DNA of 64,000 nucleotides from Gammaproteobacteria bacterium (lineage in GTDB: Bacteria > Pseudomonadota > Gammaproteobacteria > Eutrophobiales > Eutrophobiaceae), in the NCBI GenBank assembly GCA_965202915.1, contig OZ241847.1, positions 2,194,242-2,258,241 of the forward strand, given 5' to 3'. Positions within the stretch are counted from its first letter, which is position 1. Every line of letters starts with the position of its first letter. The position numbers were made by a program, and so were the translations under genes. This document shows positions 948 to 56,177 of the stretch, one piece after another. The notes under the pieces are model-generated. The model worked only from the letters and a program-made list of their open reading frames with translations, was not told where the DNA came from and ran no database searches.

Positions 948-1076
948 ATTTTCACTTAATCTGTGAATATATCTCACTGATGGCGTTCGCAATGTTTATC
1001 AGGTGGCTTGTTTAGCCTTAAAGCAGGCACAAACCCTTAGCCCACACAACCGCGCGACAGCCTTTATTCCGGGAGA

Positions 1077-1124
1077 AACATTGGCTGAACGCAACATTGG
1101 CTGAACGCAACATTGGCTCACGCC
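1077..1124. repeat. 16-bp direct tandem repeat, about 3 copies (aacattggctgaacgc x2, then the degenerate aacattggctcacgcc)
   Basis: Read directly from lines 1021-1081. It lies in the divergent intergenic region between the aminotransferase start (947) and the GT-C/TPR gene start (1260). Confidence 0.9.
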
Positions 1125-1259
1125 GGCATTTGCCACGCCACCCCCTATGCCTGGCGGCATACATACCGTTGACGCATCACCATGGGGTCATTAAAATATT
1201 CCCGTGTCGCACTACGGACTGGAATCTTCCCTCACACTTAATAATGAGAATCATCAAAA

Positions 1260-3146
1260 GTGAGTAGGCAATCAAATTTCAATGCCAGAAAACGCGGCAA
1301 CAGGAACCGACGCCGGCAAGCCAAATCGCAACCGGTTTCGCCAACAAGCTCAAAGCCATCAGCGACAATATCAGCAAGGGAAAGTATCCATATTACCCCG
1401 GCGCCGCACGGGCCGGAGTCACCCGTCTCCGCCGCGGCACCGGAAGCCGCCATCGCAACCGTATTCGCGCTGCCGGCACTATGCCTGTTAATCACCCTCA
1501 GTTACCTGCCCGCAACCTGGGCGGGGTTGGTGTGGGACGACGTCGTACTGACGATGGCCCAACCGTTGCAACATCTGTCCGGCCTATGGGATATCTGGTT
1601 CGCGCCCCGTTCCCTTTCCCAGTTTGAGGGACACTACTGGCCGCTTCTCTATACGTCTTTCTGGCTGGAGAATCGATTGTGGGGCGTCACCCCGGTCGGC
1701 TATCATATTGTCAACCTTGTACTACATGGCTTGGTCACAGTACTGCTATGGCGCCTGTTACTAAGGCTGGCCGTTCCCGGTGCCTGGTTTGCGGCGGCGG
1801 TGTTCGCGGTACATCCCCTGCACGTGGAGTCCGTGGCATGGATCATCGGACGCAAGGACGTGCTGGCCTCACTGTTTTATCTGGCCTGCGTGCTGAGTTA
1901 CCTGCATTTCATCGAGGCCCGGCGGCGCCGGTTTTATGCCGCGGCACTGGCACTGTTCATGGCGGGTCTGTTGTGCAAATCCATCCTGGTCACGCTGCCC
2001 GTATCGCTACTGATCTGGCACTGGTGGCAACAGGGGCGCGTGACGCCGGCCGACGTGCGCAGAGTGCTGCCGTTCCTGCTGCTGGGGCTGTGCGTCACGA
2101 TCGCCGACGTCTTGTTCTACAAGAGCAGGGATCCCACCGCCTTTGACTATTCAATCGTTGAACGGCTACTGATCGCGGCGCAGGCATTGTGGTTCTACCT
2201 GGGAAAACTGGTCTGGCCGACGCAACTGGCGGTCATTTACCCGCGCTGGGAGGTCGGCGTCGCCAACCCGCTGGCCTGGGGGTGTTTGATGGCCGCCTTC
2301 GCTGCGGTGGCGGCGCTGTGGTTCGGGCGCCACCGCATCGGTCGGGGGCCGCTGGCGGGTGCACTGTTCTTCGTGGTGACGCTGTCGCCGACGCTGGGCT
2401 TCGTGGACTATGGCTACATGCTGTACTCCTTTGTCGCCGACCGCTACCAATACTTGGCCGGGGCCGGTGTGATTGCAACACTGGCCGCAGCCGTAACCCT
2501 GGGCATGGGCAGACTGCCGGGCGCATACCGGCGCGGAGCGCAGGGCATGGCGGTGCTGCCGCTGGCCGCACTGGGCGTCATCACCTGGAACCAGGCGGGA
2601 ATCTACCGGGACAACTACACTTTTTACAGCCACGTCCTCTCTCTCAACCCGCAGGCCCGCTTCGCCCACCACAGTATCGGCCTGGAGTATCAAAAGCAGG
2701 GCCGCCACGAAGAGGCACTTGCCGCTTTTGAAACCGACTATCGTCTTGCCCCGGAGCAGCCGTCCCCACGGGTGCGCATGAGCAAGGCCCAGACCAGCAT
2801 CGGAACGTCGCTTGCGGCACTGGGCCGGATCCAGGAAGCGGAGGAGCACTTCCGGCGCGGGGTTGAGATCGCCCCGGACTTTCCGGGGGCCTACGATCAT
2901 CTGGGCGGGTTCCTGATCACGCACAAGCGTTACCGGGAGGCCCTCGAAGTTTTTCAAGCCGTCATCACCATAACGCCCGGCAATGCAAGGTTTCACGTCG
3001 GCCTGGGGGTCTCGCAGGCGGGCTTGGGACGGCTGGATGAGGCCTTGCAGAGCTACGAGCGGGCGCTGTTGATAGACCCCTTGCAGGAGCAGGCGCTAAG
3101 CAATCGCGCCAGCCTGTTGAAGTTCAGAGAGAGTGGCGGCGGATAG
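1260..3146 (+). CDS. Polytopic GT-C-fold glycosyltransferase-like protein (TMTC/PMT_2-like) with C-terminal TPR repeats; paralogue of 9789-11648
   Basis: 628-aa ORF with a GTG start. It has multiple hydrophobic segments and a first-loop LVWDD acidic motif. GHYWPLLYTSFWLE...GYHIVNLVLHG and AVHPLHVESVAWIIGRKD are also present. The C-terminal ~170 aa shows TPR-like periodicity (EALAAFE, EAEEHFRRGVEIAPDF, EALEVFQAVI, EALQSYERALLIDP). The region is GC-rich with third codon positions mostly G/C. Confidence 0.75.
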   Translation: MSRQSNFNARKRGNRNRRRQAKSQPVSPTSSKPSATISARESIHITPAPHGPESPVSAAAPEAAIATVFALPALCLLITLSYLPATWAGLVWDDVVLTMAQPLQHLSGLWDIWFAPRSLSQFEGHYWPLLYTSFWLENRLWGVTPVGYHIVNLVLHGLVTVLLWRLLLRLAVPGAWFAAAVFAVHPLHVESVAWIIGRKDVLASLFYLACVLSYLHFIEARRRRFYAAALALFMAGLLCKSILVTLPVSLLIWHWWQQGRVTPADVRRVLPFLLLGLCVTIADVLFYKSRDPTAFDYSIVERLLIAAQALWFYLGKLVWPTQLAVIYPRWEVGVANPLAWGCLMAAFAAVAALWFGRHRIGRGPLAGALFFVVTLSPTLGFVDYGYMLYSFVADRYQYLAGAGVIATLAAAVTLGMGRLPGAYRRGAQGMAVLPLAALGVITWNQAGIYRDNYTFYSHVLSLNPQARFAHHSIGLEYQKQGRHEEALAAFETDYRLAPEQPSPRVRMSKAQTSIGTSLAALGRIQEAEEHFRRGVEIAPDFPGAYDHLGGFLITHKRYREALEVFQAVITITPGNARFHVGLGVSQAGLGRLDEALQSYERALLIDPLQEQALSNRASLLKFRESGGG

Positions 3147-3391
3147 TGCTAAAGGGCTCAAGATAAATATATTCTGCGCGGCAAAGCGGGAACATCGGCC
3201 AATAACACCGAGGAAAGGCATCACACACCACAACCAGATCGTGGCCATTCACGCCGACCAAGAGCGAATGAACCGGCAGGTACTCACACCCCACCTCAAA
3301 AGACCAGTTGTCATTGAACGACATATTCAAGATTCCGATCTTACGATTCGGATGGTTTCGGTGATAATGGTGGGCAGGGGGGCAGGGTCAC

Positions 3392-3841
3392 TCATATTCT
3401 CTTTTGTGGCTTCTCCAGCATTTTTCCAAGCTGATTCAGTTTTCTGTTAAGAAGTTGCCCGTCTTTTAGCTGACATTCCCATATCCGCAATACTTTCCAT
3501 CCGTTGTTTTTAAGCGTCTTGTTTACCAGCCTGTCACGTTTCTTGTTGGCATATATTTTTTTAACCCAAAAATCTCTGTTGTTTTGGGGAACTTGGCCGT
3601 GCTTTGGGCAATCATGCCAGAAACATCCATCCATAAAGATCGCAAGCTTACTGTTTGGAAATACAATGTCTGGCTTGCCGAAAATCGGGTATCTGCGTCG
3701 CCATCCTATCACATGATTTCGCTTCAATATTTTAAGCAGTTTCCCTTCGGTTGATTTGTTTCCAGTAGAACGCACCTTACCCATAATCCATGAACGTTTT
3801 TCTTTTGAATAGACGTCAACCATTTTTCTTGACGTTGTCAA
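3392..3841 (-). CDS. vsr: Very-short-patch repair endonuclease Vsr
   Basis: 149-aa ORF containing GKPDIVFPNSKLAIFMDGCFWHDCPKHG, NRDFWVKKIYANKKRD and GWKVLRIWECQL. Its start overlaps the 3' end of the upstream ORF by 26 nt (3816-3841). Confidence 0.9.
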   Translation of the reverse strand: MTTSRKMVDVYSKEKRSWIMGKVRSTGNKSTEGKLLKILKRNHVIGWRRRYPIFGKPDIVFPNSKLAIFMDGCFWHDCPKHGQVPQNNRDFWVKKIYANKKRDRLVNKTLKNNGWKVLRIWECQLKDGQLLNRKLNQLGKMLEKPQKRI

Positions 3842-5477
3842 GCCTAAACAATAAAAATGAAATTAGACTTAGAATATCAAGGCAACTATTTTCTGGAAAT
3901 AATATATTTGATGTTGTCCTAGGTTCATGGTGCGTTGGATTTCTGAATGCTTGCACCAAACCAACTGAAAGAAATTGTTGACCCCTTTGCATGTTAAGTT
4001 CTGTGTCGTCGGAAAGGTCTGAAATTTGAAGTATTGGAAGCCTGGTTATTGTTGTTCTCCCTCTCTCGTTGTGTGATTCAAAACTAAAAGATTTATGCAT
4101 CAAATCAGTAGATGAATAATTAACACCAGCCTTATCTCTAATTTCCCTTTCATAAATCACCACTCCCTCTTTTGCAGCATCCAGATATCGGGCATTTTTA
4201 TAATCTTCGTACAGTCGATCCCTGATAAGCTGATGCAAATTTCTCCAATGATAATAAGGGTAAGAAGGTATAAGTTTTTTAAACTCGACAAACAGCCGAT
4301 TTGATTCAATAGTTTCTATTTCAGGAAAATCTTCAATCAGTTTTTCAGTAATAACCTCAATACTATTCTGAATTTCCTCCGGCATAGAATTTTTCCAGTC
4401 TTCCAGACCAATATCGCCAAGGCTGTTATCAACCTCGGCTATTTTCTTTTCTTTACGCTTTCTACGCCAATCCAATTGAACGAACTGGACACATTTCTCA
4501 AGATATGTATGAAGTTTGCTAGTTTGTAAATACCCCCAGTTTAGGTTTTGTCTGTTAGTGGAAATTACGTCCTCTGAAAAATCTTCTATAAAATCCACTT
4601 CCAACCATCCCGTCATATAAGAAAAGAAATGACTGGACGTGCTATCAGAAAATTGATAAGGAGATTGCACGAGTTTCCCCCGCGAAAACAAAGAAATACC
4701 CCTTGAATCAAATCTTGGTGCAATGGGCTTTTCAGGCGTAATGATCTTTCCCTGAATCTCAGACCGGTGCTCATAATCTGATTCTATGTTTGAAAAATCC
4801 TCGGGGAAATTCCAAGAAAATTCTTCACCAAATGCGGAGAAGTGCATATCATTGGACAACATTACCGGGTCTTCATCGTTACGCCTTACGGTAACGGAAA
4901 AATCTTCATCGAAAATAAAAAACCTTGCTATGCTGTTGGCAAGAAATTTTTCCGAAAAATCAGATTCTCTATTGATGTTTGTAAGTATTATTTGAGTTCC
5001 GGATTGACCATCTTCAACAATTTTGTCAATTACTTGCGGGATCATTAAATATTTCCCTCTCGTGGAGTTCATTAAATCATCCCAATCCATCGTAAAAATA
5101 TTTCTTTTTCCCTGTTGAACAGTGTTTACGGTAATTGTCCGAACAATCCCAAAGAATGAAAGCTTGCCCAAACCCTTTTTACCGATAACCTTCCTACCTC
5201 TCGGAGTCAACTCTTCTCCATCTTCTCTGCGGTTTCTCCCAATAACAAGAAATTTCTTGTCAATATCATTAAAAGACATTCCTGTTCCATTGTCCGTTAC
5301 AATAATTTCTTTTTCATTAATATCATTCAACTGCACTTCCACTTTTGTGGCATCTGCATCATATGCGTTGGCTAGCAGCTCACTTAAAACCGGAGGAAGA
5401 GTTGAGTACATACGAACTCCAAGGTGCTCTATAACTCTTGGGTCAAACTTCATCGTCAATTGATTAGATTCCAGCAT
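3816..5477 (-). CDS. GHKL (HATPase_c_3/MORC-like) ATPase with a C-terminal TIGR02391 (Hypoth_Ymh)-like domain
   Basis: 553-aa ORF with Bergerat-fold motifs: N-box SELLANAYDA, G1 VTDNGTGM, G2 GKKGLGKLSFFG. The C-terminal ~120 aa (YLDAAKEGVVIYEREIRDKAG...DLMHKSF...QRGQQFLSVGLVQAFRNPTHHEP...LSLISFLLFRLD) matches my recollection of the TIGR02391 pattern. It includes an R-x4-H motif (RNPTHH). Confidence 0.75.
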   Translation of the reverse strand: MLESNQLTMKFDPRVIEHLGVRMYSTLPPVLSELLANAYDADATKVEVQLNDINEKEIIVTDNGTGMSFNDIDKKFLVIGRNRREDGEELTPRGRKVIGKKGLGKLSFFGIVRTITVNTVQQGKRNIFTMDWDDLMNSTRGKYLMIPQVIDKIVEDGQSGTQIILTNINRESDFSEKFLANSIARFFIFDEDFSVTVRRNDEDPVMLSNDMHFSAFGEEFSWNFPEDFSNIESDYEHRSEIQGKIITPEKPIAPRFDSRGISLFSRGKLVQSPYQFSDSTSSHFFSYMTGWLEVDFIEDFSEDVISTNRQNLNWGYLQTSKLHTYLEKCVQFVQLDWRRKRKEKKIAEVDNSLGDIGLEDWKNSMPEEIQNSIEVITEKLIEDFPEIETIESNRLFVEFKKLIPSYPYYHWRNLHQLIRDRLYEDYKNARYLDAAKEGVVIYEREIRDKAGVNYSSTDLMHKSFSFESHNERGRTTITRLPILQISDLSDDTELNMQRGQQFLSVGLVQAFRNPTHHEPRTTSNILFPENSCLDILSLISFLLFRLDNVKKNG

Positions 5478-5489
5478 AATAAAACTATC

Positions 5490-6530
5490 TCAGCCCGAGT
5501 AAAAAGATTTCGCTATTCTGTAAGCAAGTTGCGGTGGCACTGCATTGCCTATTAGCTTGGCTGCGATCATTGAACTTTCACACGCAAAAACATAGTCTTC
5601 GCTGAACGTTTGTAGTGTTGCACCTTCTCTTAGGGACAATCCTCTGTTCTCCTCGGGATGGGCAAATCGACCATTTGAAATCCCGTTAAATCTCGTTGTA
5701 ATTGTTGAAGAGGGTTTATCCCACCTCAATCTCCCATAAACATCCCGAAAAGAATTATCTTTGCCTTTGTAGGTGTTCAATTGAAGCTCGGGGTCGTCTT
5801 TCCATGCGCTCCTTGTCCCGCCGTCTTTGGGTGTTAGCTTGAGCCGTCTCAAATTTTTTTCGGATAACGATGAAACTGTATCCATGAAATTATTTTCATC
5901 CTTATAACCGGATTGCAGAACGGGAAATCCATTATGGGTCCCTATAAATTCCTTCAATACGGATTCTTTCTCCGGTTGGGGAAGATCAATCGATTTTTTT
6001 ACCCTGGAAGCAATCAAGATAAATCTCTTTCTGCTTTGCGGAACTCCATAATACTTGGCATTGATAATATCCTCGACAATCTTATATTCTTTTTCAAGTT
6101 TCCGACAAAATTTGTCAAGCCCACTTTCCGCTTTGTTTCTTTTTATTCCCGGAACATTTTCTATAATTACATAACCCGGTTTGTAGTAACAGACAAAGCG
6201 CCAAAAATGATCAAGCAGTCCTCTGGTGTTCTCCGATGATCTTTTGTTCGTATTCAGGGTGGTCCAGTGCTGGCATGGGCTGCACCCTATAAAGATCAAA
6301 GAGTCGTCATTGCGTTTAATCCCACAATTTTTTTCCAGAAAAGTTCGTGGTGTGTCTTCTATATCTTTTAGAAAAAATTTTGTCCCCGGATGATTTGCCT
6401 CATATGTCTCTTTACAATCCTCATCCACATCTATCCCGGCAACAACCTTTACTCCGGCCATCTTTAACCCTTGGGACATGCCGCCGGCACCGCAAAAAAA
6501 ATCAACCGCTCTTAAGGATTTTTTTCTCAT
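5490..6530 (-). CDS. dcm: DNA (cytosine-5)-methyltransferase
   Basis: 346-aa ORF with the canonical m5C-MTase motifs. These are I DFFCGAGGMSQG, IV GCSPCQHW, VI IIENVPG, VIII QSRKRFILIA and X GNAVPPQLA. Its start overlaps the stop of the upstream ORF (ATGA, 6527-6530). Confidence 0.95.
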   Translation of the reverse strand: MRKKSLRAVDFFCGAGGMSQGLKMAGVKVVAGIDVDEDCKETYEANHPGTKFFLKDIEDTPRTFLEKNCGIKRNDDSLIFIGCSPCQHWTTLNTNKRSSENTRGLLDHFWRFVCYYKPGYVIIENVPGIKRNKAESGLDKFCRKLEKEYKIVEDIINAKYYGVPQSRKRFILIASRVKKSIDLPQPEKESVLKEFIGTHNGFPVLQSGYKDENNFMDTVSSLSEKNLRRLKLTPKDGGTRSAWKDDPELQLNTYKGKDNSFRDVYGRLRWDKPSSTITTRFNGISNGRFAHPEENRGLSLREGATLQTFSEDYVFACESSMIAAKLIGNAVPPQLAYRIAKSFYSG

Positions 6531-8872
6531 TCGCCACCGCCCAAACTGGCTATTAATGTTACTATATGTGCCGCAACCGCGGACGAGGCAGCACGCACGA
6601 CAGAATCTTCGTCATATTCCTCCCGGCCATCGGAATTATCTTCGGAGTCACTGACAAGTCTCTTATACATTGCTAATGTGAGAATGCCCACCCCCACCCT
6701 GAAGCGGTGCCTGATGATCTCTCTCTTACCCTCATCTGATTCTTTGGAAATTAAGTACAAGAGATATTTATTGGCTTTGTTCACATATATGGTTAGCGTT
6801 TCTCCTCTGGACACATGACCGCCCGACTCTTCATTGTAGTTATGTTCATCCCAATATTCTTGCTCCACCCACTCAATATTCGGAAATTCCCGAGCCGGTC
6901 TCTCTTGATTGTTTGTGTCTGTTTCATCCCCGGGCGGGTTTCTTTGAGTTTCTTCCGCACTGGCAATTTTGATCATTACGTCAAAAGTCAGAGGATCTGT
7001 TCTTTCCGGGTTTGAGTCATCAAAGCCAAACTGAACGGCAATTTCATCTCCTACTTTTGCCCCCGCGGGAGTTATGACTTTTATTCGGAATTTTCCATTA
7101 CGCAGAGAACCCGAATGTGGCAATATATCAGGTGATGGGTGAATAAACTCCCCTCGGTTGGCATCTCTTATCAAATAATCATTTTGAGCGTCTGTTCTAC
7201 ATTCAATTCGTCTGTAAGAATTTATGGGAACACTCTTAACATTGCCCTCCTCCAAGTGCGTGGGAGTTAAATATGTGGGGAACAATTTCCCTTCATATTG
7301 ATCCTCACCTCCGGATGTTGCAATCTGACTGTCAACAATACTTCCAACATCAAATAGTTCTTGAAGATCCGGATTATCTTTAACAAGATTGGAAAGAAAT
7401 TCTTTATCGGTCTGCTCTTCTATTTGCTCGCTAATACGACGGTTTTTTATTTCTCTTGCATATTCCCTAAGTTCTCCGCTCCCGGCCAAGGCATCTATAA
7501 TAATTTTCTTTAGTTCTCTCGTGAGCCCTATGTCCGCCATTCTTTCCCTGTCCGATTTAAACACGGCGGCTCGCGCCGTATTATCCATGGCATTACAATC
7601 TATTTGAACAATTAAATGGTTTCTCAAATCATCCAGTCGCGCCTTCCGCAACAGACTGGCTCTGTCCGCAGATTGGGACTGACCGTTGATCGTGTAGAAC
7701 ATTCTGTATGGCTGTTTGCGCAAATAATCCTTCATTTTCTTCAACCCAAAATAAGATATTCGGATAGTCCCCAAATCCGAATTTTCAGAATTTTCAATTA
7801 CGTTTTCCAAGTCAACTTCGCTTTCCTCACTTCTTTCATCATCGGATTTGAGCACTATATTCATACCGGAAAAAGTTCTCGGTGCAATACCCTCCGCTCT
7901 AAGACCGCTCCTTGTGGGTTGAGCATCAAAATCATAAAGACGAACAGGCAAGGCACAATTTATAAGGTTGGTCGTAAGCGCATCATATAGTCCTATATCA
8001 ACCGCACGGGCACGAGGCCCTATATCGTATTCATATAACTTCACAATGCTGCCACCATTGATGACGACACCGATATCCTCTCTGCCAAAAGCCTTGATTT
8101 CATCGGTTTCAAAACAGGCAATTTCTCCGTCGGGACAAAAATACTCAACCACTGGCAAATCCTCTCCTTCTCGAACTCCTCTTACCCTTATCAAAGTCCA
8201 TCCCCATAGACCATCCGAACCGTAAGTGGTTCTTTTGGACAGAATAAACTTATACATCCCCGCCCTGATATCTGCTCGGGTACAAAAAGGTATGGATCCG
8301 GTGCTACCCATATTAAATCGACCTTGGACAAACGGAATGCCTTCCTTATTCTTTTCTCCAAGAGATAAAAAAGTTTTTCCAAAATCTGTATGATTTTGCC
8401 CCTCACCAAAATCAACTATCGTATAGTTTGGACAAATATCATTTCTCCTTCCTGTTCTCTTAATACCAATCAAAACACTTTTTTCAGCCAGATCAGTCCT
8501 TTGATTCGGGCTTAACAAAGCCAACCTGCCTTCTTGAACTTTGGGGAAAAAGTGTTTGACAGCCTCGCTCATATCTTGGGGAGCTGATTCACCATAAAAA
8601 TCTATTTGCTCTTCCTTTGCCCTGCGCATAAGGATTGCGTCAATGGAATTAATGATTAACTCTGCCAACGCACCGACTGGTTGGCTCGTTTGGACGCTCA
8701 CCCTGTCCCAATTTTTATCCGCGCCGCCGTAAGGCTTCCAATTTTCATCAGCGCTAAATTCAGGCTGGCTTTCCATGAACCGATTAACGTCGTCGGCTGA
8801 CAAAGCACCGAGAAACTTATTCGCTATTAACTTTGAAAGTGGGCTGTTGAAAAATTTTCTCGAATCATTCAT
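6527..8872 (-). CDS. Large uncharacterised protein with a divergent N-terminal GHKL/Bergerat ATPase-like region
   Basis: 781-aa ORF and the first gene of the AT-rich operon. Candidate motifs are N-box LAELIINSIDA, G1 IVDFGEGQ and G2 QGRFNMGSTGS (about aa 68-200). I recognise no motifs in the remaining ~550 aa, which end in an acidic tail (SDSEDNSDGREEYDED). Confidence 0.6.
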   Translation of the reverse strand: MNDSRKFFNSPLSKLIANKFLGALSADDVNRFMESQPEFSADENWKPYGGADKNWDRVSVQTSQPVGALAELIINSIDAILMRRAKEEQIDFYGESAPQDMSEAVKHFFPKVQEGRLALLSPNQRTDLAEKSVLIGIKRTGRRNDICPNYTIVDFGEGQNHTDFGKTFLSLGEKNKEGIPFVQGRFNMGSTGSIPFCTRADIRAGMYKFILSKRTTYGSDGLWGWTLIRVRGVREGEDLPVVEYFCPDGEIACFETDEIKAFGREDIGVVINGGSIVKLYEYDIGPRARAVDIGLYDALTTNLINCALPVRLYDFDAQPTRSGLRAEGIAPRTFSGMNIVLKSDDERSEESEVDLENVIENSENSDLGTIRISYFGLKKMKDYLRKQPYRMFYTINGQSQSADRASLLRKARLDDLRNHLIVQIDCNAMDNTARAAVFKSDRERMADIGLTRELKKIIIDALAGSGELREYAREIKNRRISEQIEEQTDKEFLSNLVKDNPDLQELFDVGSIVDSQIATSGGEDQYEGKLFPTYLTPTHLEEGNVKSVPINSYRRIECRTDAQNDYLIRDANRGEFIHPSPDILPHSGSLRNGKFRIKVITPAGAKVGDEIAVQFGFDDSNPERTDPLTFDVMIKIASAEETQRNPPGDETDTNNQERPAREFPNIEWVEQEYWDEHNYNEESGGHVSRGETLTIYVNKANKYLLYLISKESDEGKREIIRHRFRVGVGILTLAMYKRLVSDSEDNSDGREEYDEDSVVRAASSAVAAHIVTLIASLGGGE

Positions 8873-8924
8873 TTATGAAAATTCACCTAGGTTTTGGTAT
8901 TTAATCAGTACATATCCATAACCG

Positions 8925-9300
8925 TTAAAAATCATTCCCGGAACCAAATGGCCACCCACTTGCGGAATAGGCCCGGATGTCATCATCGCCGGCATATTTG
9001 AACCAAAAAACCGCCGCCGGCACAACCGAACATTTGCCAAGCCGGCAGTTTTCCACCACCACCTTGAGCATGGCGTATTCGCCGTTGACTTGGCAGGCGA
9101 AAGCCAGCATATCGAATGCTACTTGATACGCCAAATGATGTCGAGTTTAATATATCCAGTTTGACCATTACGCATGTCGGTGATGTCGAGATCTTCACGC
9201 AGTGCTTTATCGCCATTGGTTAGGACCATTTTGTAACTGTATTTGTCGCCGCCCGCTAGAATCGCCGGACATACGGACTCCCCGAACCAAGAATGATAAC
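8925..9300 (-). pseudogene. hemB: Decayed C-terminal relic of porphobilinogen synthase (hemB-like)
   Basis: Minus-strand fragments lie in different frames, broken by stops. Compared with E. coli HemB from memory: ...ALREDLDIT..DMRNGQTGYIKLDIIWRIK resembles [29 protein letters not shown]. ...LAFACQVNGEYAMLKVVVEN...FWFKYAGDDDIRAYSA resembles [20 protein letters not shown]...GSIKRAGADLIFSYFA. Confidence 0.55.
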
Positions 9301-9788
9301 ATTAGCTCCCTCTACAATCCAGGTATTTCCCAACGCCTGTCCTTCCAGAACACCTATCGACCAAACCATCGGTTACTGACAGAACAACATCTACGGACGT
9401 GGCGACAGCGGTAATTGGGTTATCATGGAATCATCCGATTCACACCATCTCCAGAATATACGGGCGGCAGCATCGGACACTTCCTTGGGTATGTGTGCTA
9501 CCCGCACCTCCAATTAACACGGCCGAGTTGAGAATGTGAACCAAGTATTTCGTTGGTAATTACCCCACATCCTTCGACTTATCAGGTAATGAGACAAGAC
9601 TCGGCAAGGTTACGGGACTTCCCCGGTCACCGTCTGTGCACAATCTTATAATGCTTTTCTGCGAAAATTATGAGGATTGTGTAAAATCCTCTCTTGTATA
9701 GGATTAGGATACCCTCTTGCCACACTTCAGACTGAAATCTGCCTTCTCCTCAAGAAAGGAGTGGCGCAAGGTGAACAGATAATCGGAT

Positions 9789-11648
9789 ATGGCGGCCCGA
9801 AAAAACCGAAACAAGGCCCGGCGCAGGCAAATGAAGCTGCAAACCACCGCCAGGCGCCCCGGCACGGTGCGTAGCCGGACCGGCCCCGTACCCATCAAAT
9901 CGTCGCCGGGCGGGTTGCAATCGCTTTTTTCCGGGCTCAAGCGGAGCGTACTTCACGGGGACCCGATCCCACCCGCACTCGCGGCCACGGCGCTGTGGCT
10001 GCTGATACTCATCAGTTACCTGCCCGCGACCTGGGCCGGTTTCGTGTGGGACGACTTCGCGTTCACGGAGGCCGAACAGGTACTGCGCCCATCCGGTCTT
10101 TGGGATATCTGGTTCAAGCCGCACTCGCTGCAGAATGAAGGCCATTACTGGCCGCTCCTCTATACGACCTTCTGGCTGGAGCACAAGTTGTGGGGGCTGG
10201 ACCCGACCGGTTATCATATCGTCAACCTGCTGCTGCACGGGTTGACCACGCTGTTGTTGTGGCGCCTGCTGCTGCGGCTGGCCGTGCCGGGCGCCTGGTT
10301 CGCGGCGGCGGTGTTCGCCGTGCACCCCCTGCACGTGGAGTCGGTGGCATGGGTTATCGGACGCAAGGACGTGCTGGCGGGGCTGTTCTCCGTGGCCTGC
10401 GTGCTGAGCTATCTGCGTTTCGTGGAAGCTGGTCGCCGCGCACGCTATACGCACTACTTTCGGGCACTGGCGCTGTTCGTGGCGGGACTGTTGAGCAAAT
10501 CCATTGTCGTCACCCTGCCGGTGTCGCTGTTGATCTGGCACTGGTGGAAGCAGGGTCGCGTAGCCGTGACCGACGCACTGAGGACGCTGCCGTTCCTGCT
10601 GCTGGGGCTCGGCATCACGATCATCGACTGGTGGTACTACAAGGACCGGGAAGAGATTGTCCTGGAGGACTACTCGTTGATCGAGCAGACGCTGAACGCG
10701 GCGCACGCGCTGTGGTTCTACGTTGGCAAACTGGTCTGGCCGGCGGAACTGGCAGTCATCTACCCGCGCTGGGAAATCAACGTCAGCGAGCCACTGGCCT
10801 GGGCGTATCTGGTCACCGCCGTCGCGGTGGTGTGGCTGCTGTGGTTCTACCGCGACCGCATTGGCCGGGGGCCGCTGGCGGGGGTGCTGTTCTTCGTGGT
10901 GACGCTATCACCGACCCTGGGGTTCGTCGAGTACGGTTTCATGCAGTTCTCGCTGGTCGCCGACCGCTATCAGTACCTGGCCGGGATCGGAGTGACGGCG
11001 GGCCTCGTGGCCGCCGCGGCCCGCGTTGCAGGCCGGCTGTCGGGTACGCCGGCGAGGGGCGTACAGGCCGCGGCGGTGCTGCTGCTGGTCGTGCTGGGAA
11101 CCATCAGTTGGAACCAGGCGGGCATCTACCGCGACAACTTCACGTTCTACCAGCATATCATCGCTCTCAACCCGCAGGCCAGGAACGCCTGGTACAACCT
11201 TGGCAGAGAGTATTCCATGCAGGGCCGCACGCAGGATGCGCTGGCCGCGTATCTCACCGCCGGCGAGCAGCGCCCCGACCACGTCTGGGCGCATATCGGC
11301 GCCGGGCAGATGGCCGCGGAACTGGGAAGGCTCGCCGAGGCGGAGATGTACCTGCAACGCGCGCTTGCGGTTGACCCGAGTTTCCCGGAAGCCCTCAACA
11401 ATATGGGAGCGCTGCGGCTCAGACAAAAACGCTACAGCGAGGCGCTCGAACTCTTTGAGACCCTGATTGAGATGCAGCCCGAGTACGCCAAGGTTTATTC
11501 TGGCATAGGCGTGGCCCTGGCCGGACTCAGGCGGTTTGAAGAGGCGTTGCGGAGTTTTGACCGCGCGCTTGAACTGGACCCGTCACTGGAAGAGGCGCGG
11601 GTCAACCGCGAGCACGTATTGCGGAACTCCAAAAGCGAGAGCAGGTAA
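9789..11648 (+). CDS. Polytopic GT-C-fold glycosyltransferase-like protein (TMTC/PMT_2-like) with C-terminal TPR repeats; paralogue of 1260-3146
   Basis: 619-aa ORF that is colinear with the 628-aa protein. Shared blocks include ISYLPATWAGFVWDD, GHYWPLLYTTFWLE, LLWRLLLRLAVPGAWFAAAVFAVHPLHVESVAW, RIGRGPLAG.LFFVVTLSPTLGFV and WNQAGIYRDN. The TPR tail is more divergent. Its stop overlaps the next start (TAATG at 11646-11650). Confidence 0.8.
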   Translation: MAARKNRNKARRRQMKLQTTARRPGTVRSRTGPVPIKSSPGGLQSLFSGLKRSVLHGDPIPPALAATALWLLILISYLPATWAGFVWDDFAFTEAEQVLRPSGLWDIWFKPHSLQNEGHYWPLLYTTFWLEHKLWGLDPTGYHIVNLLLHGLTTLLLWRLLLRLAVPGAWFAAAVFAVHPLHVESVAWVIGRKDVLAGLFSVACVLSYLRFVEAGRRARYTHYFRALALFVAGLLSKSIVVTLPVSLLIWHWWKQGRVAVTDALRTLPFLLLGLGITIIDWWYYKDREEIVLEDYSLIEQTLNAAHALWFYVGKLVWPAELAVIYPRWEINVSEPLAWAYLVTAVAVVWLLWFYRDRIGRGPLAGVLFFVVTLSPTLGFVEYGFMQFSLVADRYQYLAGIGVTAGLVAAAARVAGRLSGTPARGVQAAAVLLLVVLGTISWNQAGIYRDNFTFYQHIIALNPQARNAWYNLGREYSMQGRTQDALAAYLTAGEQRPDHVWAHIGAGQMAAELGRLAEAEMYLQRALAVDPSFPEALNNMGALRLRQKRYSEALELFETLIEMQPEYAKVYSGIGVALAGLRRFEEALRSFDRALELDPSLEEARVNREHVLRNSKSESR

Positions 11649-13414
11649 TGGCGAAACGGAAAAACCCCCGCCCCGCCACTCGCCGGCGCCGACAACCTGG
11701 GGCAGCGGCGCCGACAACGGCAACGATGCCCTGGCGGTGGCGCGCGGGCGACGCCTTATTTGCCGCCGACCGCCCGCGGCTCGCCGGCGACGGCGAACAC
11801 TGGACGTATTTCTGGCCGCTGCTGGGCGCGGCCCTGCTGCTGCGCGCTGCCATCGCCCTGTGGGGTGACTTTGTGCTGCATCCGGACGAGATCATGCAAT
11901 ACCTGGAGCCGGCCCACTATGTGGCCTTCGGCAATGGCGTCCTCTACTGGGAATATCTCCACGGCGCACGCAGCTGGCTGATCCCGGGCGCGATCGCCGG
12001 CGTGCTGAAGGCGCTGGATGGCTTGGGGCTGGCGCAGCCGGCCATCTATATCGCCGTGGTGAAACTGTTGTTCTGCCTGCTGTCGCTGTCGGTGCCGTGG
12101 GCCATGTACCGCTTCACGCAAATCACGGTCAACGAGCGATCTGCTCGGCTGGCGCTGATCTTCGGCTGCTTCTGGTACGAACTGGCGGCGCTGGCGCACA
12201 AACCCTTCACCGAATTGTTCAGCACTTCCATTTTCATGGTCGTGCTCGCTCTGTCCGTGGGCAGGGAAGCGGAAAGACCCGCCAGGCTGTTTGCCATCGG
12301 CCTGCTGGCGGCACTCAGCGGTGCGGTGCGCCTGCAGTACGCACCCGTGGCGTTGCTGCTGTTGTTGCTGCGCTCGGTATCCCTGCGCAACGGCGTTGCC
12401 GGGCTGGTGTCGTTATGGGCGGGCGCCGGGCTGCTGACGCTGCTAGTGGGTATCTTCGAATGGCAGACCTGGGGGGCGCCGTTTCATTCCTACCTGAGCA
12501 ACTTCTTTATCAATCTCGCCATTGACCCCGCACGCGCCGGTGAATCAAGCCGATGGCTTCTGTTGGGGCAGTTGGCCGCGGCCAGCGGCGGCATGGCACT
12601 GATCGCCTTTGCCGCTGCGCTGCCCAGGGGGCGGCGGCATCTGCTCATCCTGGTGACGAGCGCGGTGATACTCGTCCTGCACCTGCTCCCGGAGCATCGC
12701 GAATACCGCTTCATCCACGTCCTGATCCCGTGCTGGTTGATGCTGCTGGCGGCCTGGATCGCGCGCTGGGGCGACGGATTGTCCGGCGAACGAGGCCGGA
12801 TATCCGCACTGGCGCGGCGCTGGGGCGCGGCGGCGGTGCTGGCCTTCGGCATCCCAGCCCTACTCAATGCGTTTCCCTGGCAGAGCCGGGTGTACCAGAG
12901 TTTCTCCGTGGAAAAACCGGTGTACTACTTGCGCAATCAGGACCCGATATTTGAGATCATGTCTTTCCTGGCCGCCCAGGACGACGTGCACGGAGCTCTC
13001 TACCATACCCGGGAATACAACGCATACTTCAGCACTGGCGGCTATTACTACCTGCACCACGACGTCCCTTTCTATACCGCGCAAGACACCTGGCAAACCA
13101 TCAGGGAACGGCACCCGGCGGTGCCTCAGGAATCGTTGGTTTCCCATATCGTGACCGAGGCCGACGGCCCCGCCATCCAGGGGTTCGAACGACTGCTCCG
13201 GCGTGGAAACCTGGCGCTGTGGCGGCGCCGGGACAACGACAGTGCAGTCCCCCGCTGGCGCGAGCACGTGATCAAGGTAAGCCATGCGGACCTAAACGAC
13301 CTGGTGAGCAGAACCATGCGGCGCCTGAACGCCTCTTCCATGCTCGACCTTTTCGTAGCCGATGACTTGTACTGGGTGGAGGCGCCACCGTTGTTTGAGT
13401 CGGCGGATGAATAA
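11648..13414 (+). CDS. GT-C mannosyltransferase-like membrane protein (GT22 / PIG-B-ALG9-like)
   Basis: 588-aa polytopic ORF. Its first-loop motif LHPDEIMQYLEPAHYVAFGNGVLYWEYLHGARSWLIPG matches the PDE..Q.LE.AH...FG.G.LTWE...G.RS pattern of Dol-P-Man-dependent GT22 enzymes. It is translationally coupled to the upstream gene. Confidence 0.65.
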   Translation: MAKRKNPRPATRRRRQPGAAAPTTATMPWRWRAGDALFAADRPRLAGDGEHWTYFWPLLGAALLLRAAIALWGDFVLHPDEIMQYLEPAHYVAFGNGVLYWEYLHGARSWLIPGAIAGVLKALDGLGLAQPAIYIAVVKLLFCLLSLSVPWAMYRFTQITVNERSARLALIFGCFWYELAALAHKPFTELFSTSIFMVVLALSVGREAERPARLFAIGLLAALSGAVRLQYAPVALLLLLLRSVSLRNGVAGLVSLWAGAGLLTLLVGIFEWQTWGAPFHSYLSNFFINLAIDPARAGESSRWLLLGQLAAASGGMALIAFAAALPRGRRHLLILVTSAVILVLHLLPEHREYRFIHVLIPCWLMLLAAWIARWGDGLSGERGRISALARRWGAAAVLAFGIPALLNAFPWQSRVYQSFSVEKPVYYLRNQDPIFEIMSFLAAQDDVHGALYHTREYNAYFSTGGYYYLHHDVPFYTAQDTWQTIRERHPAVPQESLVSHIVTEADGPAIQGFERLLRRGNLALWRRRDNDSAVPRWREHVIKVSHADLNDLVSRTMRRLNASSMLDLFVADDLYWVEAPPLFESADE

Positions 13415-13654
13415 AAGTTTGTGGTCACGATCTTACACGGGCAGCCCGATGCCGATACCGTTCGCAGGTGTGGCCCACCGGGCCAGGTGGTCGGCGATGC
13501 TTTCCGACCCCATGGAGCCCCGCGCGGCCCCGGAATAGTCTTCGCAACCGCTCATTGGTTTGCCGGCGACAATATGGCACACTCTCCGGCAGTTTGATTG
13601 TAATGTTGATCCTGTCTTTTGATTTGCTTTTTCATTGCTTTAGGAGGCCCGCCC

Positions 13655-14404
13655 ATGTCCAAAAACCTAAGCGACTTTTCAACCCTGAGCCTGGACTGCT
13701 ATGGCACACTCATTGACTGGGAGACTGGCATTTGGGACGCGCTACAGCCCCTGATCCGGCGATCCGGACGAGACGACGTCGTGCGCCGCCAAGGACTCGA
13801 GGCGTTCGCCCGATTTGAAAATGCCCGCGAAATGGAGACACCGGAGCTGCCCTACCCGGAGATTTTGCAACGAACCCACGCCGACGTGGCGGCCTACCTG
13901 GGAATGACCACCTCGGTGGAACTGGACCGCGAGTTTGCCTGCTCCATCGCCCACTGGCCGGCCTTTGCCGACACCGCCGACGCGCTGCGCCGCCTGCGGA
14001 AGCACTATAAACTGGTGATCCTGTCCAACGTCGACCGGGCCGGATTCGCCGCCTCGGCGACCAAGCTCGGCGTCGCCTTTGACGCCGCCTACACAGCGGA
14101 AGATATCCGCTCCTATAAACCCGCCGCCGCCAACTTCCACTACCTGATCGAACATCTCCAGGCCGATCTCGGCGTTAAGCGCGAAGCCATCCTGCACACC
14201 GCCCAGAGCCTGTTCCACGACCACGCACCGGCCAACGCCTTCGACCTCGCCAACGTCTGGATCGACCGCCAGGGGCTGTCGCATAGCGACAACTGGGGCG
14301 CCACCGCCAGGCTCGACAAGCGCCCCGACGTGGACTTCCTGTTCCCGACCCTGGCGGCGATGGCGGACGCAGTGGAAGGGGAGGTCGAGCCGCCCCAGGG
14401 TTGA
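13655..14404 (+). CDS. HAD-superfamily hydrolase, haloacid dehalogenase type II-like
   Basis: An internal ATG of the 261-aa ORF is preceded by AGGAGG. Motifs are LSLDCYGTLIDWE (DxYGT nucleophile motif), ILSNVD, SYKP and the C-terminal DH/D region. Confidence 0.75.
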   Translation: MSKNLSDFSTLSLDCYGTLIDWETGIWDALQPLIRRSGRDDVVRRQGLEAFARFENAREMETPELPYPEILQRTHADVAAYLGMTTSVELDREFACSIAHWPAFADTADALRRLRKHYKLVILSNVDRAGFAASATKLGVAFDAAYTAEDIRSYKPAAANFHYLIEHLQADLGVKREAILHTAQSLFHDHAPANAFDLANVWIDRQGLSHSDNWGATARLDKRPDVDFLFPTLAAMADAVEGEVEPPQG

Positions 14405-14712
14405 AAGCGGTCATGCACTGTACCAGTTAAGGATATAAATCCAGTGGTGGGTCTGGTACCTGGCGTCGTTCCTGATTCCGCACTGATGGCGGGGCGGGGA
14501 GCAAGTGCACAGCAGGGGCCAGGACTGAACACTTCGGCAGTGGGTGCTGCCTGGCGTCTTGCTGGTTGTACAAACGCGCCGGTGCCACGTTGCTGGCGGT
14601 GCTGCTTCCCACCAATTGCGCCGCCGGGACATTTTTAATGAACTATGTCCACAAAAAATTCACTTGTCCGAGCGAAAGCTTTGTAGTGCCCGCCCTGGTG
14701 CGCGAGATTCAC

Positions 14713-15643
14713 TTACCCGTTCGCCATTGTGGAGACGGTCGTGTATCTGCGCGCGAGTGCCGCACGAGAGACACGGTGTTCGTCGACCAGTGGCGGGATT
14801 CCCCGATGTTGCCGTATTACTTGAGCGGTCAACTCATTTTCTGCTGCGGCCTGGGACACTACACCAGACTGCCCGGTGACCTTGTATAGGGTGATATCCT
14901 CGCGCACTTGCTCCAACAGATAGAATTCCATCCGGGCATGGTTGAAAGCGAAGCGATCTCCTGACCGGTTGTTGAACACCAGCTTGGAGAGCGCAATGTT
15001 GACGACTACCAGCGCGGCCAAAATTGTCAGTATCCAGTGATTAGACAGCCCTAGCCTGCAAACCACGGCAAACCCCTTGAGATGGGTCGGATTTCGACCC
15101 TGTGCGTAAACCAGCGTCAGCAGCAGAATCAAAAGAAAAAGCAGCACGTGTAAGGAATACACCTTCTGGATAATGGACTGCGACCAGAATAGCTTGGAAA
15201 ACCCGTAGGCGAAGCCGGCCATGTAGCCGCCGAGGCGGCCGCCCGTCAGGTGGACCGCCACCAGATATAGCACCGCGCAGGCCGCCGCGCCCAAAAGGGC
15301 GCTCAATATGTTGCCGGCCAGCGGGCGCGAAAGCAACGGCAGGTGGGCGAACGGGAAGCACAACATGCTGTACAGCGGGTAACCCGGCGGGTGCACTGGT
15401 TGGCCGTAGTGGCAAATCAGGTTGAAGATCGCTGCGTCTTCGTAGGTGACGACACGGGGCATCGTGGCCAGATATACGATAAAAAGCCCGGTAAACACGG
15501 CCAGAGGGGGGGCAGCCCTGTCCTTCGATGTTATCGCGTAATGAAAACAAGCTAACCGTAGCGGCGTTGCGCACCCTGTCTTGGGACTGGGGGCGCACCT
15601 TACCCGAACGGGTACGGTTTTTTCTTTTACTCTTTCTGCGCAT
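14713..15643 (-). pseudogene. DUF2723/TMEM260-like GT-C membrane protein, reading frame broken at a C7 homopolymer (pseudogene, phase variant or sequencing error)
   Basis: The 261-aa ORF (14713-15498) carries YEDAAIFNLICHYGQPVHPPGYPLYSML, the DUF2723 first-loop signature. Its frame stays open upstream (..KDRAAPPLAVFTG..). A basic N-terminus MRRKSKRKNRTRSGKVRPQSQ...EGQGCPP lies in another frame, starting at 15643. Removing one C from the C7 run joins the two frames. Confidence 0.6.
15506..15512. repeat. Homopolymeric G7 (C7 on the coding strand) tract at the frameshift point of the DUF2723-like gene
   Basis: Read directly from line 15481 (ccagaggggg ggcagccc). Confidence 0.9.
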
Positions 15644-15656
15644 GGTGCCTACCCAA

Positions 15657-15956
15657 CTACAGTCCCTTTTTGGCAAATACTATCACGTCTGATGCTGTAC
15701 CCGCTCGAATCGGCTCGCCTGAACGGGAGGGCGGAATGATTGTAATGTCGACTATGATGTCGCGTGTTTCATCCGGGCGGTTTTGTTGAATCTCGTCTTT
15801 TATGATTTGTATGTCCAGCCGGATCAACGGTTTATTCAGGTCAAAGATTTTCGCCAATTGGTAGCAAACGTCGCCGTCAAAGAATAAATCTTTGCGGTCT
15901 GTCTCAACCTCATATTGGGGGTTATAATGGTCTTGAGTTCGTTTTGCTTGGCACAA
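15657..15956 (-). CDS. Hypothetical protein (99 aa, TTG start), ending 13 nt upstream of the DUF2723-like gene start
   Basis: Supported only by the ORF and its operon-like spacing. I recognise no motif in it. Confidence 0.3.
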   Translation of the reverse strand: MCQAKRTQDHYNPQYEVETDRKDLFFDGDVCYQLAKIFDLNKPLIRLDIQIIKDEIQQNRPDETRDIIVDITIIPPSRSGEPIRAGTASDVIVFAKKGL

Positions 15957-16329: not shown

Positions 16330-17304
16330 ATGAAATTAGATGAATTAAATAAATACAGAAGGCTAATACTCATTATTAGTGTTATTGCCTTTTCTCTTTT
16401 GTTAATTGGTGTGTCTGAGGTCTTTCTAGCCAGATATATGGGCCTGGGTGAGCCTGTACTTTATGACTCATCTCCAATATACGGGTATAGGCCATTGCCT
16501 GGAAAAACATACTCTAGATTTTATGGAAAGGAGGTAAAGTTTAATAATCTGGGGCTAAGGTCTGAATCTGATTGGAACGAAGATATTGAAGATAAAATAC
16601 TTTTTCTTGGTGATTCCGTAACTTATGGAGGTTCTTATATTAGCAATACGGAATTGTTTTCTTATCTATCTGTAAAAAATCTGGGAAACAATTACGTTAG
16701 CGGGAATGCCGGGGTAAATGCATGGGGGGTTGAAAATATATATGGTCTTATTGTCGAGTCAGGGTTCATGCCCGCGGGAATTTACGTCACAGTTATTCCA
16801 GAATCTGATTTTTACAGAGGCTTGACTAGAATACACGGGCTCCCTTTCTATAATGAGGATCCAAAATATGCTTTTCAGGAGCTATTTGATTATTTTATTA
16901 TTAATAAAAATAATAATAAGCGATACAAAGGTTGGCAACACTATGCTGATAAAAACACAAAGGCTTTCGTTATAGAAAAAGCAGTGAAAAAACTAAAGAT
17001 GATCGATGTATTGTTAAAGGAAAAGGGGTATAAGCACTTAATCTTTATTTCTCCCAAAAAAAGGCAAGTGATAAAACATTTGGAGAAAGATCTTCTGAAA
17101 AAAGATCCATTGGTTAAAAAATTTCTAACGAAACATGGGCTGTTTCCTTTCTATATAAAAGATGAAATAAATAAGCTTGATTTATTGAGGGAGGAAATAG
17201 AGGGTATCTATCATGGCGACCATGACAACATACATCTTTCAGAAAAGGGCCATAGGCTCTGGGCAAGGATTATAACAAATAAGTTACAAGAGTTACTGCT
17301 TTAG
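16330..17304 (+). CDS. Membrane-anchored SGNH/GDSL-family hydrolase-like protein
   Basis: 324-aa ORF in a very AT-rich stretch, with an N-terminal TM segment (LILIISVIAFSLLLIGV). Block I is ILFLGDSVTYGG, with GNAGVNAWG following. Block V is HGDHDNIHLSEKGH. Confidence 0.7.
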   Translation: MKLDELNKYRRLILIISVIAFSLLLIGVSEVFLARYMGLGEPVLYDSSPIYGYRPLPGKTYSRFYGKEVKFNNLGLRSESDWNEDIEDKILFLGDSVTYGGSYISNTELFSYLSVKNLGNNYVSGNAGVNAWGVENIYGLIVESGFMPAGIYVTVIPESDFYRGLTRIHGLPFYNEDPKYAFQELFDYFIINKNNNKRYKGWQHYADKNTKAFVIEKAVKKLKMIDVLLKEKGYKHLIFISPKKRQVIKHLEKDLLKKDPLVKKFLTKHGLFPFYIKDEINKLDLLREEIEGIYHGDHDNIHLSEKGHRLWARIITNKLQELLL

Positions 17305-55583: not shown

Positions 55584-56177
55584 ATGAATAATCATTATGC
55601 AATCAAGCTCCCAACTGTGCCGCAAGGCTTGCCGGGAAAATGCCTGGTACTGTGCTGGCCGTTACTGCTGGCGACGGACATATATGCCGCCGAACTGATC
55701 CTCGGCAAAGAGCGCATCCCACCCGGTATTGAGCTCATCTTTGAAGGTGCCGTCAAAGATGACGTGACGCCCGCCGGCCAACATTTGCCAATCGCTAAAA
55801 CCCACGTACACCTGGAGGCATTGGCGAACTGGGCTGAAGACGGGTCGGCACCGGCGGGCGCCCCCGGCGGAGGCTTCATACCTTACCTGAAGATCACTGC
55901 TGAAGTCACCAATGAAACAAGCGGGGCTTCAACACTGGTGGACCTGGTACCGCACATTAACCTGATTGACAACCTGCACTACGCACGCAACATGTCCCTG
56001 CCGGGCAAGATCACCGATAAATACGAGGTGACTTTCCACGTTGTCCCCCCCGGCAGATTCGACCTTGCCTATCACAAGGATTGGCGGGTGCAATACGAAA
56101 AAGGCTTATTCAAAGAAGCAAAATTCCGCATCCGGCACATCGACTTCGAGGAAATTGCGCTGGCGACCAGGGAGTAA
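55584..56177 (+). CDS. P19/FtrA/Tp34-family periplasmic iron(copper)-binding protein
   Basis: 197-aa ORF with AGGAGG 8 nt upstream and a signal peptide. THVHLEALANWAED...GGFIPYLKITAEVTNETSG...LVPHINLIDNLHYARN...KYEVTFHVVPP parallels the Campylobacter P19 pattern I recall (HLEADIHA..GF.PYL.I.YE..N..TG...P....DG.HY..N..YEL.F.I..P). Confidence 0.65.
   Translation: MNNHYAIKLPTVPQGLPGKCLVLCWPLLLATDIYAAELILGKERIPPGIELIFEGAVKDDVTPAGQHLPIAKTHVHLEALANWAEDGSAPAGAPGGGFIPYLKITAEVTNETSGASTLVDLVPHINLIDNLHYARNMSLPGKITDKYEVTFHVVPPGRFDLAYHKDWRVQYEKGLFKEAKFRIRHIDFEEIALATRE

Follow-up and report, generated by a model that had tools for sequence, protein, structure and literature searches.

Does a run of seven C's near the 5' end of a glycosyltransferase gene act as a switch, is it a reading error, or does it mark a gene that is being lost? 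The question is raised by an ORF of 261 aa (14713-15498, minus strand, GTG start) in the window, by which we mean the whole stretch of 64,000 nucleotides of gammaproteobacterial DNA that was analyzed. An earlier note took this ORF for a DUF2723-like gene that a C7 run separates from its own N-terminus, and offered a homopolymer sequencing error, a recent pseudogenization, or slipped-strand phase variation of a surface-modifying enzyme as explanations. Our results indicate that 15643-14873 on the minus strand is very probably the eroded remnant of a DUF2723/TMEM260-like GT-C gene of about 730 to 750 aa with a fixed frameshift, and thus an ordinary decaying pseudogene and no switch.

The C7 tract and the break in the reading frame

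Positions 15506-15512 are GGGGGGG on the plus strand and hence C7 on the minus strand. On that strand, the ATG at 15643 starts a frame reading MRRKSKRKNRTRSGKVRPQSQDRVRNAATVSLFSLRDNIEGQGCPPSG that stays open for about 200 codons, with a third-position GC of only 0.35-0.5, versus 0.75-0.95 in the frame of the 261-aa ORF. The latter frame is open upstream to about 15648 as ...KDRAAPPLAVFTGLFIVYLATM, as had been noticed earlier, and between 15498 and about 15648 it holds no ATG, GTG or TTG. No uninterrupted ORF runs from a start codon through TM1 and the domain, as leader and domain are in different frames. Deletion of one C had been expected to give a continuous product of about 309 aa; the product is indeed 309 aa long and reads ...EGQGCPPLAVFTGLF. 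The two features on which the argument starts are as follows.

15513..15643, minus strand: 5' end of the original gene, with the ATG and a Lys/Arg-rich leader MRRKSKRKNRTRSGKVRPQ...NIEGQG (orthologue alignment, ATG frame)
15506..15512, minus strand: C7 homopolymer (G7 on the plus strand), the +1 insertion site that breaks the reading frame

Where the extra base sits can be read directly from a DNA alignment with the orthologues. Between a conserved GGC and a conserved CTG codon these have 9 nt, CGCCACGCG (CGC CAC GCG, encoding R-H-A), whereas 10 nt, TGCCCCCCCT, are present in the window. This places the extra base within the interval that holds the C7 run, and removing one C exactly restores the orthologue spacing. 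In protein alignment A1, the ATG frame follows the orthologues through ...SLRDNIEG-QG (counterparts ...SLRALING-HG and ...AEFFSG-HG), and the ORF frame follows them from LAVFTGLFIVYLATMPRVV (LAVF) onward. A codon-usage likelihood scan, trained on the genes of the GC-rich island, gave 15514-15505 as the best position for a single +1 switch; the fit was 1.6 lnL units worse for a T4 run at 15547 and 5.2 lnL units worse for an A-run at 15567. Third-position GC on its own did not resolve the switch point.

The tract itself is no statistical anomaly. C7/G7 occurs 4 times in the window, versus 13.2 +/- 4.8 times expected from dinucleotide-preserving shuffles, so such runs are depleted in the window and not enriched. 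What goes beyond chance is that the sequences to either side of the tract are homologous to a single orthologous protein. It appears that the run formed when the interrupting A and G were substituted and one base was then gained.

The leader is MRRKSKRKNR in the window and MGRKNKRKNR in the orthologues. The orthologue N-termini are MGRKNKRKNRRQAG...LRALINGHG (P0069), MGRKNKKQGRARP (P0068), MGRRKRRQPPRPQ (P0070) and MGKKKKNRQGQR (P0071). Twelve of the first 25 residues of the remnant leader are K or R, against a median of 3 among the window's 48 long ORFs. The island's three intact GT-C genes (starts 1260, 9789 and 11648) have 9, 10 and 8, respectively. The leaders of the four GT-C genes were compared as a possible repeated cassette and share no DNA similarity, so the K/R richness is a property of the proteins and not of a repeated cassette. 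With the orthologue leaders as the decisive evidence, the upstream ATG and leader are this gene's own N-terminus. The claim that the C7 run separates the gene from that N-terminus is confirmed, since leader and domain match the same orthologues. Orthologues lacking the basic N-terminal segment had been named as evidence that would speak against it; all of them possess the segment, and the reading stands. The orthologue subfamily of about 740 aa also opens with a Lys/Arg-rich leader (MGRKNKRKNR...).

What remains of the gene

A first homologue search returned P0001 (the annotated product of the window, 249 aa, starting at ATG 15462), P0002 (187 aa, from a JGI contig) and distant relatives of 450-540 aa, which align at <=40% identity and to the N-terminal half of the query only. 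A family HMM of 493 positions, built from 50 distant relatives, matches the window only at positions 7-183 (E=1e-44); positions 184-493 are absent from the whole 64-kb window. A search of the plus strand at 14476-14886 against 1.8 billion representative proteins led indirectly to the orthologues. The contig of P0059 (L083) carries a DUF2723 partner gene that is 79% identical to the window fragment, and a search with this partner gene yielded full-length proteins of 717-753 aa (P0068-P0077). Among these, P0073 (689 aa) starts further in, and the others have the K/R leader; the orthologues used for comparison have 728-750 aa. The repaired protein had no match in the genome-contig collection, nor did metagenome contigs scanned with the ORF protein and with a DNA pattern allowing 5-10 tract bases give one, and no contigs were returned when P0001 and the upstream 99-aa ORF were looked up as exact proteins. 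We also considered the short DUF2723 database proteins P0009, P0027, P0039, P0047 and P0048 as natural short forms. This was rejected: their C-termini end abruptly, two are labelled partial, and all are apparently partial sequences.

Blastn against the orthologues, together with protein alignment A1 for the second and third blocks, divides the ORF into three homologous blocks and a tail.

15009..15504, minus strand: block 1, TMEM260-like (DUF2723, PF11028) N-terminal domain, about TM1 to TM5, in the +1 frame relative to the ATG
14932..15015, minus strand: block 2, LVVVNIALSKLVFNNRSGDRFAFNHAR, joined directly to block 1
14873..14931, minus strand: block 3, MEFYLLEQVREDITLYKVTG, where orthologue homology ends
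14713..14872, minus strand: spurious tail of the 261-aa ORF, antisense to a PMT_2-type remnant and without orthologue homology

The blocks are collinear with the orthologues. Block 1 is 77-79% identical to orthologue nt 106-601 (gene of contig L086, 2187 nt) and spans 15529-15016 against the L084 gene. Block 2 matches nt 1237-1320 of the L086 gene, nt 1287-1367 in L084 and nt 950-1020 in L083, and block 3 matches nt 1387-1445 of 2187 in L086 and nt 1438-1496 of 2253 in L084. Relative to the orthologues, 618-642 nt (206-214 codons) are deleted in frame between blocks 1 and 2, and another 66 nt are deleted in frame between blocks 2 and 3. Nothing matches past orthologue nt ~1445-1496 of 2187-2253, so that the 3' end has lost about 740 nt (~250 codons). 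About 35% of the gene is left and about 65% of the orthologue is absent; the retained blocks have 60-63% amino acid identity to the intact orthologues. Both internal deletions are multiples of three, which has a chance of about 1 in 9, and this could be a hint of some selection on the ORF. A simple 3' truncation at ~14995, with an ORF tail without family homology, was considered and rejected, as 15015-14873 is homologous and is displaced by the deletions. The description of the 261-aa ORF as a DUF2723-like gene thus holds for the domain and fails for the gene as a whole, given the two deletions and the 3' truncation.

The last stretch of the ORF (14959-14713) has a third-position GC of 0.43 in the 261-aa ORF frame, and from about 14875 downward the third-position periodicity is that of a plus-strand frame. 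A second remnant lies here.

14445..14886, plus strand: internal fragment of a PMT_2-type GT-C glycosyltransferase (phmmer, tblastn)

By phmmer and tblastn, this fragment matches P0059 at 52% identity (E=1e-25), and the PMT_2 proteins P0063, P0064 and P0066 (520-590 aa) are matched at residues ~360-500. Its frame changes from +3 to +1, in-frame stops interrupt it, and it lacks about 330 codons at the 5' end and about 70 at the 3' end. The neighboring GT22 and TPR GT-C proteins gave nothing significant in tblastn against 14300-15100. In L083 (62% GC) the same convergent pair, PMT_2-type and DUF2723, is found with stop codons 25 nt apart, and this is presumably the ancestral arrangement of the convergent genes. 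With the stops this close together, one deletion of about 1 kb can explain why both 3' ends are missing.

The retained domain is well conserved. PF11028 is found in the 261-aa ORF with E=2.7e-17 and a score of 63.6 bits, the cutoff being 24.2. One column in the first extracytoplasmic loop is 100% D in the family and is also D here, within YED. Human TMEM260 has 11 TM helices and a C-terminal TPR region, TM1-TM7 being the GT-C module, and its Asp52 is the catalytic acidic residue of the first loop (PMC10214176). Judged by this alignment, the equivalent of Asp52 is retained in the remnant. In total, 19 of the 22 strongly conserved family columns are kept in the N-terminal domain, the catalytic Asp included. 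This is why we consider the decay recent or incomplete. The Glu of the (A/Q)EVY motif, present in 88% of the 50 distant homologues and in 6/6 close orthologues, is Lys here (IIQKVY). A crude hydropathy count gives 4 strong TM segments, and the remnant has neither the complete GT-C membrane module nor the C-terminal domain (orthologous subfamily, ~730-750 aa; wider family, 450-540 aa).

We count at least four inactivating lesions in the gene. A C-rich stretch has gained one C, most simply C6 becoming C7 by replication slippage, so that TM1 and the catalytic loop are no longer in frame with the ATG and the basic cytoplasmic leader. The deletion of 618-642 nt removes the rest of the GT-C membrane core without changing the frame, and the 66-nt deletion adds a further in-frame loss. 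Finally, a deletion of about 1 kb may have taken the 3' ends of both the DUF2723 gene and the convergent PMT_2-type gene. We infer slippage, the loss of function and the order of these events from the sequence comparison. The option of a recent pseudogenization was right, and it understated the damage, which also includes two deletions and the loss of the 3' end.

A second lineage and the surrounding island

Contig L001 (JGI 3300000051, metagenome) is 99.7% identical to the window over 17176-14572 (2.6 kb) and has the same C7 tract and the same deletions. The frameshift is real and is fixed in the two lineages sampled, and it is one scar among several. With C7 in the window and C7 in L001, the test of tract-length variation is a weak one, as the collections searched contain the locus in only these two sequences (n=2). 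L001 carries further changes, which together with a 126-bp indel all fall within the remnants. An extra G at ~15603 stops its ATG frame after 14 codons, one A is lost at ~15567, and a TGG-to-TAA nonsense change is present at 15035-15034, inside the retained domain. The genes that flank the remnant in L001 match the window except for one indel 14 bases from the contig end, in a GDSL-like gene, and the 99-aa ORF (15657-15956) is identical. The indels of L001 could be sequencing errors of an older assembly. Two of the three lie within 40 nt of the 2.6-kb alignment, in the leader, which argues for real decay and is no proof of it. Two further features are of use in comparing the sequences.

14572..14583, no strand: 126-bp deletion relative to L001, which has an 11-bp direct repeat, CCGGCGCGTTT, on either side of the additional segment
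13619..14404, plus strand: intact HAD-family hydrolase gene (Pfam PF00702), the contrast case

Between the window and L001, the HAD gene differs by 13 synonymous and 6 non-synonymous changes without any indel, and it is under purifying selection. The pattern of differences is that of neutral decay beside constrained genes. The divergence between the two sequences rises from 0.3% (17176-14572) to 2.6% (14583-13516), exactly at the 126-bp indel (L001 2605-2718). This jump at ~14575 suggests a recombination breakpoint between closely related lineages.

Both convergent GT-C remnants are found between the HAD gene and the 99-aa ORF, where a GC-rich glycosylation island acquired by horizontal transfer has its right edge. 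The GC content is 60-66% between 9.5 and 15.7 kb, versus about 45-50% for the rest of the window. More broadly, GC-rich segments (57-66%) in this genome of about 45-50% GC are found at 1000-3150 and 9500-15700 of the window, and an AT-rich cassette (37-46% GC) occupies 3200-9500 between them. The genes of these segments are as follows.

1260-3146 and 9789-11648, GC-rich segments: paralogous TPR-containing PMT_2-like GT-C genes
11648-13414, GC-rich segment: GT22/Alg9-like gene
3392-3841, AT-rich cassette: Vsr endonuclease gene
3816-5477, AT-rich cassette: gene for a GHKL-ATPase plus Hypoth_Ymh protein
5490-6530, AT-rich cassette: C5 cytosine methyltransferase gene
6527-8872, AT-rich cassette: 781-aa ORF without a Pfam hit

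The cassette looks like a restriction-modification or defense module inserted in the glycosylation island.

The closest related species that we found is represented by L002 (OZ242192.1), in which ZnuB is 82% identical. L002 is syntenic with the window from 28435 down to a HIT-family gene at ~17594 (L002 11171), and beyond this point its genes are unrelated. Everything to the left of ~17500 is absent from L002 at that position, including the 99-aa ORF and the GDSL-like gene (16330-17304), which has a low GC content. Judged from this comparison, the region left of ~17500 appears to be a variable region. A promoter and terminator scan gave nothing informative.

The intact orthologues have a characteristic setting. 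The DUF2723-type gene follows a GT2-GtrA fusion gene in two contexts (L084 7059-12253; L086 8866-12187), and in L084 a 585-aa PMT_2 GT-C gene lies between the two. In L082, the gene for the more distant homologue P0003 is directly preceded by a GT2 gene, and about 1.5 kb beyond this lies a gene for a phage-type integrase. The L084 and L086 loci look like an uncharacterized periplasmic glycosylation operon, and a DUF2723 gene together with a GT2-GtrA fusion of the polyprenyl-phosphate-sugar synthase type in one operon is likely the working form of the system. Beside the remnant and among the island genes examined, we saw no GT2-GtrA donor-synthase gene.

Other explanations and comparison with known systems

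If C7 were an error of sequencing or assembly, the run would in truth be C6 and the frame would be unbroken here. Miscalled homopolymer lengths are the commonest indel errors of 454, Ion Torrent and Nanopore data, and the window comes from a single contig of 2.49 Mb. Against this, the same C7 is present in L001, which was assembled independently from another sample. The window itself also speaks against an error, as runs of A9 (twice), A8, C7 and C8 lie inside its intact long ORFs, and 88% of it is in ORFs of >=150 aa. Apart from the tract, the window has only two long G/C runs, and neither of them breaks an ORF.

58442-58449: C8 run in an intact GCV_T/YgfZ-like gene (57844-58887, minus strand), ORF unbroken
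56045-56051: C7 run in an intact Fe2+ transport protein gene (55584-56177), ORF unbroken

Such long runs inside intact ORFs indicate that the assembly of the window is not prone to homopolymer errors. An artefact would be expected to leave the break unreproduced and other homopolymers similarly broken, and we found neither. Even with C6, the two internal deletions and the 3' truncation, common to both assemblies, remain. We therefore regard a sequencing error as improbable.

Slipped-strand phase variation, in which C6 (ON) and C7 (OFF) would switch a surface-modifying glycosyltransferase, is somewhat less probable still. The tract is in the 5' coding region of a gene of a glycosyltransferase family, and one base fewer restores the frame. 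Poly-G/C tracts in glycosyltransferase genes are a classic design of contingency loci in Neisseria, Campylobacter and Helicobacter. The difficulty is that the 309-aa product of the repaired frame is not an intact gene product: the ON state would give no more than about 35% of the enzyme, lacking the C-terminal domain and most of the GT-C core. Moreover, the orthologues in L084, L085 and L086 read CGCCACGCG at the tract and have no run of >=7 in their genes, and the tract is thus no conserved device. A run of seven C's is at the low end for appreciable slippage, both independent sequences have C7, and G/C runs of >=7 are depleted in the window. In L001, more inactivating changes accumulate.

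The frame may also be broken elsewhere in the leader, at the A in 15566-15567, or not at all, with the start at GTG 15498 or ATG 15462 and an unrelated upstream ATG. In L001, where an A is missing at ~15567, an ORF with a GTG start continues into the domain frame across an unchanged C7, and the database protein P0001 does start at ATG 15462. The orthologues, however, align in the ATG frame through ...NAATVSLFSLRDNIEGQG, up to the tract, and the site at 15567 is 5.2 lnL units worse in the codon-usage scan. A start at 15498 or 15462 would leave TM1, a feature of every family member, incomplete or absent, and the match of the leader to the orthologue leaders goes against an unrelated ATG. We consider this explanation very improbable. 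Taking the L001 frame as the ancestral one requires fewer events; it was rejected on the basis of the orthologue alignment and the codon-usage likelihood.

We give a similarly small chance to a remnant that is still alive. In that case, given that the two internal deletions are in frame, a protein of about 300 aa with 4-5 helices and the basic leader would be made at C6 or via +1 slippage of tRNA-Pro on CCC-C, and it could serve as a switchable, non-catalytic modulator of the GT-C enzymes of the island, for example by sequestering a lipid-linked donor. Least probable of all is that the locus is expressed and useful as it stands, through recoding (a +1 shift on CCC-C, a sequence prone to such slippage when decoded by tRNA-Pro) or through a new role of the short 4-5-helix membrane product, to which the two in-frame deletions and the well-conserved domain would point: the orthologues are single-frame and have no run at this position, and we found neither a conserved two-frame organization nor, in the ATG frame, a stimulatory element following the run, an in-frame stop for example. 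In L001, a premature stop interrupts the retained domain and the leader has two additional indels, and the tail of the ORF is antisense junk.

A decaying pseudogene is thus the explanation that we prefer, and it has consequences for annotation. P0001 (249 aa) and the 261-aa ORF should be treated as a pseudogene fragment and neither as a DUF2723 glycosyltransferase nor as a candidate phase-variable locus. A homopolymer frameshift in the gene of a surface enzyme is insufficient to call phase variation, and the full length of the orthologues should be checked first. As a by-product, an uncharacterized DUF2723 subfamily of about 740 aa with a Lys/Arg-rich N-terminal leader has been defined.

In comparison with the TMEM260/DUF2723 family of GT-C protein O-mannosyltransferases (PMC10214176), the remnant has recognizable counterparts of TM1, the first-loop Asp, HPPGYPLY and WSQ...EVY. 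Unlike the intact bacterial orthologues of 728-750 aa, the window copy consists of only about TM1-TM5 and two short blocks, and its frame is broken. With phase-variable genes such as Neisseria lgtA/lgtC/lgtD and pgl, the Campylobacter LOS and capsule genes and Helicobacter futA/futB, it shares a G/C homopolymer near the 5' end that sets the frame. In those genes, the ON state gives a complete enzyme, and the tracts usually have >=8 bases and vary in length between and within strains, whereas here the ON state is a one-third fragment, both samples have C7 and the tract is absent from the orthologues. The closest likeness is to the decay of bacterial pseudogenes, as known from reductive genomes and from horizontally acquired islands under degradation, with a homopolymer +1 change, several deletions (one with an 11-bp repeat), a nonsense change in a sister lineage, a neighboring gene fragment and a location at an island edge. 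The remnant is an ordinary pseudogene of a kind that is already known, and it differs from others in nothing essential. It is comparatively young, as it still has 60-63% identity to intact orthologues and has kept the catalytic Asp.
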